64,000 nt of DNA from Octopus vulgaris (Eukaryota). Made by a program: the position numbers and the translations under genes. Shown here piece after piece: positions 4,515 through 60,981 of the stretch. The stretch covers positions 14,012,001-14,076,000 of the forward strand of contig OX597831.1 in NCBI GenBank assembly GCA_951406725.2, given 5' to 3'. The notes beneath the pieces are model-generated. The model was not told the DNA's origin. It saw only the letters and a program-made list of their open reading frames with translations, and did not search any database. The stretch's first letter is position 1. Every line of letters begins with the position of its first letter.

Positions 4515-4670
4515 ATACATTATTTACATTCGACGGATATTTGTCCTCATCTTGTATGTTGTTAACACAACGTCTTGGCTGATATACCTGCCAGCCTTCA
4601 TCAGGTGTCTTGGGGGAAATTTCGAACCTGGGTTCTCATTCCTGAGGTATTTTTCGATGTTATTGTTGTT
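4515..4670 (-). mobile_element. Headless copy of the tRNA-(AAT)n-hammerhead repeat; hammerhead core mutated
   Basis: Collinear with 17340-17505 and 34050-34210. Minus strand 4564-4609 reads GACAC CTGATGA A GGCTG..CAGCC AAGAC GTT GTGTT (GAAA changed to AAGA). Confidence 0.8.
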
Positions 4671-4845
4671 ATAAATCTCATATTCTCCTATCCTTCCTTA
4701 ATACCGGTTCCCGTTGCTATTCATATCTGCACTCGGTCTGCTCAGCAGGTTCTTCTCTCCTACCATATCTGCAGCATTTTTCAGTTTTCATATTTTCCAG
4801 TGGTGATCCTTGTCTATTATTTTAACTTCATCCCACAGGATAAAC

Positions 4846-12059: not shown

Positions 12060-12252
12060 ACCAGGCAGTGGCTCTCATGGCTTTTCATCTTAACTGAATG
12101 GAACTGTTATCACGTACATTGTTTTGTCTTGGTATGAAAGATGGGCTACAGCAAATATTCTGCTCAATACCACAGATTTGCTTGTCAGTTGTTTGACCTT
12201 AACCAGTTTGTATCCGAGTGTCACTTCGAAGACATGCACTGCTCTCTCACTC

Positions 12253-12307
<55 letters not shown>

Positions 12308-12868
12308 GCCCTGATGTAGTATCAGGCAGTAGTTCTCATGGCTTTTCATCTTAACTGATTGGAAGTGTTATCATGTACATTGTTTTGTCTTGGGATAAAA
12401 GATGGGCTGCGGCAAATATTCTGCTCAATTCCACAGATTTGCTTGTCAGTTGTTGGACCTTAACCAGTTGAGCATGTCCCTTAGTGGCTGACGAAATGTG
12501 CATCTCTGATCGTGAGCAGAAGCAGTGGAGGAGCATCATAGCCATGTGTTGAGAGGAATTCTTTGGGTTAGGATAATTCACCCCTGGAAATATGGGTGTT
12601 TCATTCAACATCTTTAAACAACCTTTTTTCAAGGACCTTATGAACTGCATGGGGTACTCGAAGAAAATTCTAACTGAGCCCCACCAGCAAGGTCATGCGC
12701 TATTTATCATGATGTGAGATCACCGTGTCGCTCACATATGGTTGTGGTGCATGTGGTGCACGTGCCTGGTGCAGCCTTTTCAGACGGGTAGTTATGACGG
12801 GTATACTGGGCTTCGTAGAACTGTATCTCGGTGTCACTTTGACGGCAGGCACTGCACTCTCATTCAAG
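12060..12868 (+). mobile_element. Non-coding (AAT)n-associated repeat: deleted copy (12060-12253), (AAT)n, longer copy (12305-12868)
   Basis: 12060-12208 matches 12319-12470. Both copies end GTGTCACTT..GCACTGC(T/A)CTCTCA(C/T)TCAA. The same 3' end lies reversed inside (ATT)n at 17864-17940. Confidence 0.7.
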
Positions 12869-12879
12869 GATGATGATGA

Positions 12880-17001: not shown

Positions 17002-17339
17002 AAATAGATATATTTTCGGAACTCATTTAGATTGCGCTATCTTTTCTTCATTTTATAATTAGAATTCGAAGCACCTCCTTCGCCATCCTTCACTCCCTTT
17101 CTCTCTTTATGTGTGTGCATTTGAGCATGTGAGCAAATGTGTGTGTGTGTGATGAGTGCTGCATGTGTGTATGCGCTGCGTGTGCATGTGTGATCTTTTC
17201 TCTGTGTGTTAGTGTGTGTGTGGGGGGGGTTATGTGTATGTGTGTGTGTGTGTGTCTGTGATCACTAGCACAAAAGTTGTATGGAAATGAAAGGGCAGAG
17301 GGAAGTACTGACCATAAAATTTAGAGATATTTATAGGAA

Positions 17340-17517
17340 CATCATTTACATTATTTACATTATTTACATTATTTACATTTGACGGATCTTCATCTTATTT
17401 CTTGTTAACACAACGTTTCAGCTGATATACCCTCCAGCCTTCATCAGATGTCTTGAGGAAATTTCAAATCTGAGTTCGCATTCTTAAGGTATTTTTCGAT
17501 GTTATTATCATTATCAA

Positions 17518-17550
<33 letters not shown>

Positions 17551-17555
17551 CATCA

Positions 17556-17640
<85 letters not shown>

Positions 17641-17648
17641 CATCATCA

Positions 17649-17685
<37 letters not shown>

Positions 17686-17694
17686 CATTATCAA

Positions 17695-17730
<36 letters not shown>

Positions 17731-17744
17731 CATCATCATCATCA

Positions 17745-17811
<67 letters not shown>

Positions 17812-18046
17812 CATTATTATTATCATTATTATTATTATTATTATCATTATTATTATTATTATTAAGTGTGAGAGCAGTGCATGCCATCAAAGTGACACTG
17901 GGGTAAAAATATACGAAGCCCAGTATACCCATCATGACTTATTATTATTATTATCATTATCATTATTATTATTCAGGTCACCGCCTGAAATCGATCTCGG
18001 AATCTTGGGGTTCGTAGCCCACGCTCTTAACCACATCTCTTAAATG
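17340..18046 (-). mobile_element. tRNA-(AAT)n-hammerhead element with candidate 10-bp TSD
   Basis: tRNA-like head 17974-18034, (ATT)n spacer, hammerhead 17407-17452, (AATGTAAAT)n tail. TTTATAGGAA flanks it at 17330-17339 and 18047-18056. Confidence 0.8.
17407..17452 (-). ncRNA. Type I hammerhead ribozyme, intact core
   Basis: GACAT CTGATGA A GGCTG GAGGGTATAT CAGCT GAAAC GTT GTGTT; palindromic ACGT stem III. Confidence 0.8.
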
Positions 18047-18327
18047 TTTATAGGAAATTGAAAACTTCATCAGCTGTTAAATCATTCCAGCGAGTAATAT
18101 GTGCAAGTGAGTGAATGAGTGAGTGTATGTGTATATATATTTATATATACATTCATATATATACACACATGCATACATGCATACATATACATATTTATAT
18201 ATATATATGCATGTAAATATATAAATATTAATATATATATATATATTTATGTATGTATGTACGTATGTGTACATATACATTAATGTATATATAAATATAC
18301 ATACATACAGATGTAGATACACATATC

Positions 18328-19959: not shown

Positions 19960-20317
19960 TAGTTAGTTAGTTAGTTAGTTAGTTAGTTTGTTAATTTGGC
20001 TCAAATGCAAATAGCAAGGCCATGTAGGGGGACATGGAGTTAAGTACAGGGTGGTGTTCATGTAAAGAGTTCAGGCCACTTGAGGTCCAGGGAGGCTTTG
20101 AACAAAGCGGTCGTCGGCATCTTCACCATCTCGTCTGGCAGCTTGTTCCACGGATCCGCAACCCGGACGGAGAAAGCTTCTCTCCTTCGATTGAGATGAA
20201 ATCGTCGCAGGTAGAGCTTTTCGGAATGACCCGAAAAGCTCTACCTGCGACGATTTCATCTCAATCGAAGGAGAGGAGCTTTCTCCGTCCGGGTTGCGGA
20301 TCCGTGGAACAAGCTGC
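19960..20317 (-). mobile_element. CR1-like LINE 3' end with (TAAC)n tail and inverted duplication
   Basis: Minus strand GHSEKLYLRRFHLNRRR..FSVRVADPWNKLP..FKASLD (CR1-type C-terminus). 87-bp arms at 20138-20224 and 20231-20317. Confidence 0.8.
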
Positions 20318-24819: not shown

Positions 24820-25297
24820 TTATGTTTGACATTTGCTTTGCATTTGTACAAGTTGGCTCCAAGTCTCATCCACAGACCTCAAGAGACAAGTTAGAAGTTC
24901 ATGTTGGTGTGGTGCCTAGGGTGCAATATATATTTGGTTTTGTACATAGTGTTGTTCTAGAGAATGTTTAAGAAAGCATAAAACAATTGTGTTTGTTTTA
25001 AAAATTGAGATTACATAGACTGTATTTTACGTAGGATATGGACAGTTCCCATGAGCACTATCTCTTAAATTTCTGCGATTTGGGGGTTTCCTGGTATCTG
25101 AGCTAGGTAGCAATCAGCCCCTTTTGCTATCATTCCTAAGGCACCTATGACAACAGGTATTGTTTTAGTCTTGAGGTTCCACATTTTGCTAATTTCTATT
25201 TCAAGATCTTTATATTTGCTCAGTTTTTGGTAGGTCCTGACAAATACGTTTATATCGATTGGAACAGTCATATCAATGAGAAGGTATGATTTTTGTT
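24820..25297 (-). mobile_element. R4/Dong-like non-LTR 3' fragment in (ATT)n
   Basis: KLSKYKDLEIEISKMWNLKTKTIPVVIGALG and GTVHILRK; ATT repeats on both sides. Confidence 0.85.
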
Positions 25298-33971: not shown

Positions 33972-35870
<1,899 letters not shown>

Positions 35871-57174: not shown

Positions 57175-58013
57175 TATTTTTTTTCCTTCCTTCTTCAAAT
57201 TTTCTTCCATTTCTCGCCGAGCGTTTTCCGTACACTTAGGGCAGAGAAGCTTATTGTATGCATTCCCAGATTACACATGCAAATTCACAGGTAAAATATG
57301 TATTTAAAAATTAATAAATAAATAAATTCATGAATGGTTGTTGTTTTCACAGCGATAGTGCTCTTCTCAGAACATGAGCCGTTCCAGTTAACACGATTTT
57401 TTGCACTTCTTGTAAGGATGGTAAGCCTGGTATCATTTTCAAATAGGTTTCAGTACCTTTTTTTATCATTCCTAGAGCTCCTACAATAACTTGGTACTGT
57501 AGACGCCTTGAGATGCCACATTTTTTCAATTTCTATTAGCAAGTCTTTATATTTACTGATCTTGTCAAATTCTTTCGCCGCTATATTGTGATCGCAAGGA
57601 ATACTCATGTCAATTAATAAACACATCCTTTTTGTCTGATCTTTTATAATAATATCCGGTCTATTAGCTTTTATAGTCCTGTCCGTCTGCACGGGGAAGT
57701 CCCATAGAATCGACATATTTCCTCCCTCAGTCACAGCTTCGAGATGATGTTTATACCATTTGTTGGTGGTTTTGATTTTATAATGCTGACATAGTTTAGT
57801 GTAAATACATGTCTTGCTTTATATTCTACAGATGCTAAAACTCTACACCCTGAGATTAGGTGGTCTATAGTTTCAATCTCATCGTTAAAGAATCGGCATT
57901 TTGGGTCAGCTCCATTTTACATCACATTGGCTTGGTAGTTCCGGGTTAATAATCTTTGGTGTTGAGCAGCTAATATGAAACCTTCACTCTCCGCTTTTAG
58001 CCCTGAGCTTCGT
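57175..58013 (-). mobile_element. R4/Dong-like 3' fragment next to (ATT)n
   Basis: RSSGLKAESEGFILAAQ, CRF..ETIDHLISGC, ANRPDIII..LIDMSIP and GTAHVLRRALSL*. Confidence 0.9.
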
Positions 58014-60165
58014 ATTACTATTATTATTATTATTATTATTATTATCATCATCATCATTATCATCATTTCTAAATCTCTCCATGAGAGATATTCTGTAACA
58101 GTTCTTTAAAGTAAAGACTATTTGCCAACATAATGTGGCTGTCATGGAAGGAACGTTCGTTGATGTTATTTAGCCCCAGGAAACATCGTTTCCAGCTCGC
58201 TATAGGACACAATATCGGTGTCCTTATATTTTCGAACAGGGAGGGCAGCACTCCCATCCAGCACAAAACAACATCTGTGGACTGGATTCTGGGTTATTGA
58301 TCTTCATCAACAGAGAGTAGCTGCTTGGCTAGGTGGCGTTGCTGAACTCACCGTTCGAAAATGTACAGTTTTCAAAGTGAAACACAGTTGCTGTTCTAAT
58401 AAAATAGAAATATTATTATTATTATTCTAAATCTCTCGATGAGTAACATTTCTTTAAAGTAAAGGCTATTTGCCAACATAATCTGGCTGTCCTGGAAAGG
58501 ACGAAATTACTGCTGTTTAGCTATCCTGGTTTAATCCCTTTGTCTGCCCTTGTTTGTTCCCTCTATGTTTAGCCCTCTGTGGGCAATAAAGAAATAAATA
58601 TTCTTTTGACCCATCGGTCTCAGTATTTTCAACTTTTACTGTAGGTAATTTCCTTTTTCTTATTTTGTTCTAGAATGTTCTGACTAACGTATCACGCCTC
58701 ATGGAAAGATAATACCTAGAAGACATCATCATCCACATTATTGCAGTTGGCAATAATGAGGATGATGTTTTCGGTTTTATTTTTGCTCAGCCTACATTTC
58801 TTATCTGTGAACACTTCTATCTTTTCTGCTGCAAGAACTCGGAGAATATCTCTTGTTCGTGAATGGCTTCGAAGCAGCCTTCAATGTCGGATTTCATACA
58901 CTTGTCGGAATTTTATGCGAAGCCTTTCGTATAGTTAATTCCCTTTATGCCTTGTTTCTTTCATGCCAAGCCCCAGGAACTGTCTTCTCAGGGAACAGGT
59001 CCAGTTTTTTTTTTTCTTCTTTTGATGACTAAAATTGACCAATGCTCCTTGGGGAGGTATCTGTATCAACTCTTATTTCATGCCTCTCCTGGCACTCGGG
59101 GCTGATTGGACTTATACGATTCCCATTCTGTCATTTCCGTTCTATTAGTCACTCCTTCTCTCACCCCCCCCTTGCTGTGACCAACCCCGGCATCGGCACC
59201 GCGCTACTCCATACACCCAATCCGTCTTTCCTTCCTATGACGTTGGTCTTCTGAAATTCCTTCCCAGCTCCTGTTTTGATTTGTAAAGGGGCGAGAGAAA
59301 TAATAACATCATCAGTCTCCAATTTCCTCGGTTTTAGAAGGGCCGAAAGTGTCATGGCCACAACACAATCCTCTAAACACAGTAAGTAAAAACAAGACAT
59401 TGCTATGTCCATTTCTAAACTGATCGTTCTATTTCAATAACTGAATTGTGACTACAAATAGCATCCATCTTGAATAAACCACCTCCGCTACCCTCGACAT
59501 CAATTGCTCCCATAACTACACAATTATATTCTTCTACTGGTATTGGTTTCCGATTTTGGCACTGGTCCAGCAATTTCAGTACTTATTTTATCGACTCCGA
59601 AAGGATGAAAGTCAAAGTCGATCTTGGCGGAATCTGAACTCAGAACGTGAAGATGGATGAAATACCGCCAAGCATTTTCCCCCGTCATGCTAACGTTTTT
59701 GCCAGCTCATCGCCTTTTACTCTATTGATATTAAAGTTTAAAAAACTTAAGGCGGTGAACTGGCAGAATCGTTAGCATGCCGGGTTAAATGCTTAGCGCT
59801 ATTTCGTCCGTCTTCACGTTTTGAGTTCTAATTGCGCTATGGTCGACTTTCGGGGTCGATGAAATAAGTACCAGTTGAGTACTGGGACCGATGTGATGGA
59901 TTTACCATCACAGCCCCCGAAATTGCTGGCCTTATGCCAAAATTTGAAATCGATATTAAAGCTCAAAATAAGGTGGCCGACAGGCAGACTCGTTACCACG
60001 CTGGAGGAAATTCTTAACGACATTTCTTCCGAATCTCTACGTTCTAAATTCTAGGGGGCCGATAAAATAGGTGGCTAGTTGCTAGTTTCGATACAGTCGA
60101 TTTGCCCCTCCTCTCAAAATTGGTTTTGAAGCTAAATTAGAAAGAACATTTATTAAAGTAAAAAA

Positions 60166-60205
60166 TTGCACTGATGAAGTCAGTATGATTGAAACGCGTA
60201 TGTGA
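60166..60205 (+). ncRNA. 40-nt minimal type I hammerhead, canonical core
   Basis: TTGCA CTGATGA AGTCA GTA TGATT GAAAC GC GTA TGTGA; stems I and II pair fully with G-U allowed; palindromic ACGCGT stem III. Confidence 0.75.
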
Positions 60206-60981
60206 CTGGAATATTATTGATTAAGCACAAAATGGATTAACCGGTCTGTATTAGTTTGCTTTTTAGATTTAATTCGAAATTATATAAAGTAAAATAAATT
60301 GCTAGTATTAAAACGAGTTTGCTTCAGTTTATGATATGAAAAAAGAAAATGGTGAACCCGGATACAGAGAAGATAGATTACTTGGGTGGGGCTGCAGGGA
60401 ATCATATTTTTTATTTCATCTGAAGTTCATTCCTTCGCACGTTCTAGGAATTACGTACATTAAAATAAACAAAAGGGTGTGTGTAATAGACGGAACCGGA
60501 ACTCCACGAATAAGGCATGAGGACTGCTAAGATAAAAATCTATTATGCATGTATGCATGCACGCGCGCACACACACATTTATTTACACACACATACATAT
60601 TTATACATATATATATTTATAAATGTTTATCTATATATATGCCTTAAATAAAAATGTGTGTGTGTGTGCATGTAAGGTGTATATGTAATTATATATGCAA
60701 CCATTTATTAAGGTTTATGATCTTATAGTTGACTCGGAGTTCAGTTTTTATGTCACTTATGATGACTCCACCAATTTCCATTTTATTAATTCTGATCGTA
60801 CTTAAATAGAACAAAAAATATATATAATAAAAACATAATACTGCTAAACAAAAAACCTGTTTTTTCTAAAACGTTATTAACTCTTTATTTCAAGAAACTA
60901 TTGTTTATGAAGCTGTATATGGAATCTAGCTGGTATCGATTCTTGTTAGACGGAAGGAAAAGAAATTTGCTGGTGTGTTAA

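Follow-up and report, generated by a model that had tools for sequence, protein, structure and literature searches.

Poseidon, a Penelope-like element (PLE) of Anolis carolinensis, has an ORF that starts within a hammerhead and encodes a reverse transcriptase (RT) followed by a C-terminal GIY-YIG domain, and it is arranged in partial-tandem pLTRs (PMC11167929). Its RT starts at two internal positions, of which the first lies at 111-118 nt of the ORF, and a 30- to 40-bp tail separates the two; both strands of the target are cut at ATT, a dimer is predicted, RNA up to +172 is needed, and reads ending at the hammerhead cut were looked for without success (PMC11167929). The octopus element described here shares this ORF, the partial-tandem pLTR, the hammerhead over the ORF start, the two 3' ends 30-40 nt apart and the AT-rich targets. 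However, the parts of that report consulted describe no tRNA-derived segment with A and B boxes in the anole pLTR (PMC11167929), while most octopus copies stop exactly at such a segment. The minimal hammerheads of metazoan PLEs also resemble the octopus ones, with a bulged base before stem II, G10.1-C11.1, a palindromic or absent stem III, and many solo motifs and opposite-strand motifs 100-700 bp apart; their activity is low except as dimers (PMC4209133). There, in contrast to the octopus, solo motifs are treated as truncated PLEs, and neither a tRNA head nor a defined 5' end is reported in the portions available of that work (PMC4209133).

Other systems share single parts of the arrangement. 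Schistosoma Sm-alpha and Sj-alpha have, like the octopus unit, a Pol III-type promoter and then a hammerhead, but they are described as non-coding SINE-like tandem repeats (PMC6765202), whereas in the octopus these parts form the pLTR of an element that is both coding and autonomous and whose copies are dispersed. Non-LTR retrozymes resemble the short octopus copies in being non-coding, in deriving from PLE pLTRs and in bearing type I hammerheads; unlike them they form tandem arrays of at least two hammerhead units, and the accessible text mentions no tRNA head and no sampled cephalopod (bioRxiv 10.64898/2026.07.22.740005). Cassandra, Helenus and Ajax carry a small-RNA-derived sequence inside their terminal repeat, as here, but they are non-autonomous LTR elements and the octopus element is an autonomous PLE (PMC10886601).

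The unit analysed here joins three things usually treated apart, namely, tRNA-headed SINEs, hammerhead retrozymes and Penelope pLTRs. The octopus repeats OK, OR1 and OR2, reportedly presented by Ohshima and Okada in 1994 as tRNA-derived SINEs with heads said to be of Arg origin, are similar in having such heads, a likeness drawn from their description. One of these names may already cover the short unit, without its tie to Penelope, and the family may already stand in Repbase, Dfam or the O. vulgaris repeat library (PMC13282606). In the literature consulted, mostly titles and abstracts, we found neither a tRNA-derived promoter in a PLE pLTR nor the octopus element itself described.

The window, a stretch of 64,000 nucleotides of the Octopus vulgaris genome, holds three copies of the unit (Table 1). 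For copy 1, an earlier note made from the sequence letters had proposed a tRNA-headed, hammerhead-bearing SINE or retrozyme. Its minus-strand head, its flanking 10-bp direct repeat (with only two occurrences in the window) and its repeated 9-nt tail (17339-17379) were all confirmed. The long (AAT)n is also present, split by the end of an unrelated element. The type I hammerhead motif is where it had been placed, with CUGAUGA, a stem II of 5-6 bp, GAAAC-GUU and a stem I of 5 bp, but G10.1-U11.1 replaces the G10.1-C11.1 of the family, so this hammerhead is not fully intact. Of the Arg-like reading of the head from an ACG loop, the affinity stands, since Arg(TCG) and Arg(TCT) come closest to the head majority in a set of 27 distinct genomic tRNA sequences; the loop does not, ACG being private to copy 1 (one of 52 heads, with 19 unreadable) and ACT the family state (27 of 52). 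Copy 1 lacks the first 14 nt of the head, which starts at family position +15, and for that reason most of the A box is absent there; its body differs from the family majority at 11 of 129 bases. A second B-box-like motif claimed for the body scored below -5 bits against a tRNA profile in both body copies tested, and was discarded. ARAGORN found no tRNA in the window, and Rfam gave no tRNA or hammerhead match in two local stretches tested; microsatellites dominate among the matches listed from the whole-window Rfam scan.

Table 1. Features of the three copies of the unit in the window (positions counted from the first letter of the window)
Copy	Feature	Positions	Strand	Remark
1	TSD, upstream copy, 10 bp	18047..18056	.	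direct repeat
1	Inverted 12-nt piece of the element's 3' tail	18034..18045	+	separates TSD from head
1	tRNA-derived head, family positions +15..+75	17974..18034	-	A box mostly lost, B box mutated
1	(AAT)n linker, first part	17939..17973	-	
1	Nested 3' end (74 bp) of unrelated ~550-bp AAT-targeting element	17865..17938	-	foreign to the unit
1	(AAT)n linker, expanded	17504..17864	-	
1	"Body", first codons of the Penelope ORF	17380..17503	-	ATG 17481-17479; early stop in copy 1
1	Minimal type I hammerhead	17407..17452	-	palindromic stem III; predicted cut between 17412 and 17411
1	9-nt repeat, in frame with the ORF	17340..17379	-	"short" 3' end of the family
1	TSD, downstream copy	17330..17339	.	
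2	Body with mutated hammerhead	34023..34209	-	"long" 3' end with ~30-nt tail
2	Nested 5'-truncated LINE end, presumably Dong/R4-like, in the AAT tract	34357..35466	-	foreign to the unit; zf-RVT E 4.9e-6
2	Complete tRNA-derived head	35552..35629	-	starts at -4
2	Inverted arm, hammerhead part plus short 3' end	35627..35712	+	
3	Body with mutated hammerhead	4517..4661	-	
3	Penelope endonuclease C-terminal end	4669..4841	-	head lost by private deletion, joined to body

The same order of parts, noted at 34026-35625, does recur (34023-35712), with a 1.1-kb LINE end nested in it and an inverted arm, the LINE end being one that we take to belong to the Dong/R4 clade. The copy noted at 4515-4670 is headless as stated, but it continues into the end of a Penelope endonuclease. 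We also considered an ancestral headless subfamily and rejected it: the headless ORF-body junction has a single match in the genome, window copy 3, for an exact pattern that diverged copies could escape.

The genome (2.80 Gb in 227 contigs) was searched with the body, the head and the ORF end as seeds, retaining about the best 40 of 2847, 664 and 2299 candidates, respectively. The body lay downstream of the head in 30/30 head-seeded loci, including that of the window (from the best ~40 of 664), and in 27/30 head-motif loci taken in positional order. The samples of the analysis are small, two sets coming from the start of one contig and one being ranked by likeness to the window copy. The linkage of head and hammerhead body, which the earlier note had wished to see checked across the genome, is thus borne out, and it rules out their chance co-insertion in AAT tracts.

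Head, (AAT)n and hammerhead together make up the pLTR of an autonomous Penelope/Poseidon-type element whose ORF has RT and GIY-YIG domains. The monomer runs from the head through (AAT)n to an ORF start overlapping the hammerhead, an RT and GIY-YIG frame of ~835 codons, a spacer of ~25 nt and the next head. Of 29 ORF-seeded loci outside the window (best ~40 of 2299), 28 continue past the ORF end into the head, and 27 carry on through it into the body. Head, AAT, body and ORF start are uninterrupted in the tandem copies L196, L201, L204 and L208, the last starting exactly at +1, and the partial tandem itself (ORF end, repeat, ORF start) was seen in L196, L201, L204, L256 and L258. The majority of 49 aligned segments is a single open frame of 791 codons, or ~835 from the body ATG, with YVDD and GIY-YIG-type motifs. 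Two extended ORF-seeded loci yielded RT and GIY-YIG-type sequence (RVT_1, E 1.4e-10); Pfam gave no GIY-YIG match on the pieces of the element, and PF01541 is carried by at least four relatives. Of the 7999 scored, 2923 were relatives at E<=1e-20, and the closest protein relatives have 55-68% identity. Alignment with the protein of one relative, 55% identical, extends over the hammerhead, the 9-nt repeat and the start of the ORF (40% over 116 aa, E 2e-26), indicating that "body" and "tail" are coding sequence; the start codon at the body ATG is putative, because most other long relatives begin downstream of the hammerhead.

Every feature of EN+ Penelope-like elements that we tested was found, that is, an ORF with RT and then GIY-YIG, a pLTR tandem, a minimal type I hammerhead, and a tail with inverted arms, and by domain order and likeness to the described layout of Poseidon the element can be assigned to the Penelope/Poseidon type (PMC11167929). 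The hammerhead of the family was identified by motif and fold; Rfam models miss it.

Exact motifs for the hammerhead, the head and the 26-mer immediately upstream matched 5046, 3743 and 645 times genome-wide, and their reversed controls 0 times each. Corrected by the rates at which these motifs match ORF-seeded copies (8/29, 9/29 and 6/29, respectively), the estimates are ~18,000, ~12,000 and ~3,100 arms, so that the estimated count falls ~4-fold at the head start across the genome. Copies differ by 4-6% from the majority sequence, and the family may therefore now be inactive; the strict hammerhead core is kept in 10 of 60 copies. Three ORF-linked copies on C1 (L171, L172 and L173) match in their head-junction sequence and are probably a segmental duplication, and a short tandem array of an ORF fragment lies on C4 (G000:C4:149766996-149767447).

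The arms in 134 loci comprise 120 short ends, 92 long and 21 other. The two 3' ends lie ~30 nt apart, at about +118 to +129 and at +154 from the ATG, and 64 of 78 outward inverted pairs hold one long and one short end. These features closely match the RT starts, tail and double-strand cut described for anole Poseidon (PMC11167929). TSD-like repeats surround most of the 29 copies inspected, 7-14 bp long where clear, several being short or doubtful.

The 5' ends were placed in 78 insertions chosen without regard to the ORF, 23 of which had been picked because they hold +3 to +25; the window copy, four second arms, five loci shared between sets and two copies that match a third were left out. Fourteen are headless, 12 end inside the head, 47 at -13 to +8 and five beyond -20; in other words, 47 of the 52 insertions that reach the head start (+8) stop at -13 to +8. 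The upstream edge of this pile-up is near -7/-8, with seven ends at +1, whereas the 5' ends of ORF-seeded copies (best ~40 of 2299) scatter over 1.5 kb. A 10-nt palindrome occupies -6 to +4 of the head start. An inverted arm accompanies 34 of these 47 head-start ends, so the palindrome may exaggerate the pile-up, but 13 were flagged as non-inverted (at least two of them wrongly, as they show a short fold-back), so it is not only fold-back. Template jumps in L191, L193 and L194 land at or near the head start.

In four loci (L191, L193, L198 and L214), ORF nt ~232, after GTT, meets either the head start or the hammerhead cut site, and three of these joints carry one or two extra A. They suggest RT template jumps that are rare genome-wide. 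A second cleavage site at this position (4/30 loci) was dropped as a general feature since only 1/44 genome-wide exact matches showed it.

What is unusual is that a coding element should carry a tRNA-derived head in its pLTR. In the head majority the A and B boxes are both intact and the tRNA stems have decayed; it does not fold as a cloverleaf, and ARAGORN finds none even at a relaxed score. The head reaches 21.8 and 15.0 bits against a profile of 12 genomic tRNAs, where shuffled sequences attain at most 4.5 and 2.8. The pile-up of 5' ends at the head start is most simply explained by an RNA that begins at a fixed point on a tRNA-type promoter, and from these sequence patterns we consider it probable that the head acts as a Pol III promoter setting the RNA 5' end, with RT run-off leaving the short SINE-like copies. 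Pol III would start near -6, in a pLTR followed by ORF sequence. The RT/endonuclease of the element would then cut both target strands and prime at the two internal sites given above, each arm being the cDNA primed at one of them; the cDNAs would run off at the RNA start, where two would often be joined with the aid of the palindrome. RNA reading through a tandem junction would give the longer, ORF-bearing copies, and solo short copies, which stop at the inferred RT start site, would for that reason be mostly dead ends and poor templates. Self-cleavage by the hammerhead is predicted, plausibly, only as a dimer or with the help of protein, and the AAT tract would later draw microsatellite-targeting elements. 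The Pol III idea of the earlier note survives in this altered form, partly supported by the intact majority boxes and the clustered 5' ends. The arms would amount to a high-copy natural record of Penelope replication, in which each arm marks one of two RT start sites and the RNA start is fixed, lending the in vitro model from the anole support from a very distantly related animal.

TTTT is absent from the majority ORF, where synonymous shuffles contain 2.7 on average (P(0)=0.033), and 30 copies (45 kb) contain 21 scattered, private T4, against 52-59 expected, and no T5. T4 are slightly above expectation in 21 relative families (181 vs 160), two of which have none over 460-473 codons, and other LINE ORFs of the same genome are T4-poor as well (1-3 per 1.0-1.4 kb). 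A search of the same genome for further Penelope families, meant as a control for T4, led back to this family in all 10 places retrieved. The scarcity of terminators is compatible with full-length transcription by Pol III, without proving it.

When the regions upstream of the hammerhead in 78 relative loci (86 regions in all) were scored against the tRNA profile, the highest value, 7.8 bits in both repeat copies (shuffle maximum 2.9), came from L262, a tandem PLE of 38% identity with two T4 and no T5 per 2791-nt unit. At 1480-1730 and 4270-4522 of L262, a tRNA-like stretch with A/B-like boxes and short AAT repeats lies upstream of the hammerhead. The signal spans just the 3' half of the profile and comes from one contig, so the similar head-AAT-hammerhead layout that this distant relative appears to have is only a lead. 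A bolder version of the Pol III reading is possible but doubtful: the whole ~2.7-kb terminator-free unit would be transcribed by Pol III, the uncapped RNA would serve as both message and template, internal priming would yield the thousands of SINE-like copies, and a head would have been captured independently in at least one distant lineage (L262). If true, Pol III synthesis of the full coding RNA would be an unusual way of expressing a retrotransposon protein.

Three RNA-seq runs and one contig set of organism B contain the element. In the ~6% of each run that was covered, depth is equal on both strands and tracks copy number, 78-79% of the reads enter unlike sequence, and there is no pile-up of molecule starts or ends at the head start or the hammerhead cut; among the RNA-seq joints listed, none is the circular-RNA joint expected from hammerhead cleavage. 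The organism B RNA-seq shows passive read-through, and libraries of such kind probably lose short Pol III RNAs, but the runs lend no support to the use of Pol III.

Protein-coding RNA normally requires a cap, which favours an ordinary Penelope driven by Pol II, with the tRNA-like piece as a passive relic and the ends reflecting a Pol II start or RT fold-back at the -6 to +4 palindrome. No discrete RNA was seen in the three organism B runs, and most head-start ends do have an inverted arm, several of them centred on the palindrome; in addition, Penelope of D. virilis is described with a LINE-like, TATA-less internal promoter in the corresponding region (PMC2377424). We nevertheless hold this explanation unlikely, as the A and B boxes have stayed intact despite the decay of the stems, about 11-13 copies without an inverted arm also end at the head start, the three template jumps land at or near it, and the distant L262 has a tRNA-like stretch in the same place.

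Still less probable is an independent tRNA-headed SINE or retrozyme, with short solo copies as masters that Pol III transcribes and the Penelope protein moves in trans. Short copies do outnumber ORF-linked ones by ~3:1, they carry promoter boxes and TSDs and begin at the 5' edge of a tRNA-derived head with A and B boxes, as SINEs do, and Sm-alpha and the non-LTR retrozymes are precedents. However, no base is diagnostic of short against ORF-linked copies: across 135 body positions in 26 vs 41 copies, the lowest Fisher p is 0.07. The two groups have also diverged to a similar degree (0.059 vs 0.047); sharing one majority, the short copies look like the offspring of autonomous masters and not of non-coding masters of their own, and the same head is held by nearly all ORF-linked loci (28/29, best ~40 of 2299). 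The solo copies moreover end at the inferred RT starts, while the anole protein needs RNA further into the ORF (PMC11167929). Nor are there the head-to-tail hammerhead arrays of retrozymes, since copies are dispersed or in inverted pairs and direct pairs of the short unit are isolated (L187). The unit thus falls short of a SINE and of a retrozyme on a defining point each, though the short copies resemble SINEs. The earlier note had itself named the pLTR of an autonomous Penelope element as the outcome that would speak against its independent SINE or retrozyme, and with that outcome and no diagnostic base the proposal is unsupported. Cleavage of a long transcript by RNase P at the tRNA-like 5' edge would suit the clustering of 5' ends close to where a mature tRNA would begin (seven at +1), but it is hardly credible for a majority head that forms no cloverleaf, is negative in ARAGORN even at a relaxed score, and has many 5' ends 2-8 nt upstream of +1.

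Under the preferred reading, in which the head is a Pol III promoter within the pLTR, Sm-alpha-like elements could arise by a testable route, as run-off copies that an autonomous element makes of the region holding its promoter. Some repeats annotated as "SINE" in the octopus genome are probably Penelope ends.

Other elements sit in the AAT tract, in copy 2 a LINE end of Dong/R4-like type and in copy 1 the ~550-bp element. Dong-R4 prefers TAA repeats. In O. vulgaris it is listed with the families whose activity is most recent (PMC13282606). Further fragments of Dong/R4-like LINEs, more diverged, lie at 25122-25217 and 57458-58011 (minus strand). The ~550-bp element is non-coding and was seen in AAT tracts at 12320-12870 (plus strand), 12100-12252 and 17865-17938 (minus strand), as well as in L039; the 74-bp piece nested in copy 1 recurs at 12207-12251 and 12791-12862. 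This element is possibly a non-autonomous partner of Dong/R4, and a U-snRNA origin of its head was rejected, with no match in Rfam. Elsewhere in the window, a second, unrelated minimal hammerhead-like core (CUGAUGA...GAAAC) at 60161-60212 on the plus strand is possibly the end of another PLE, and a near-perfect inverted repeat of ~55 bp with moderate GC spans 20170-20285, where the Rfam microRNA match is sub-threshold only.
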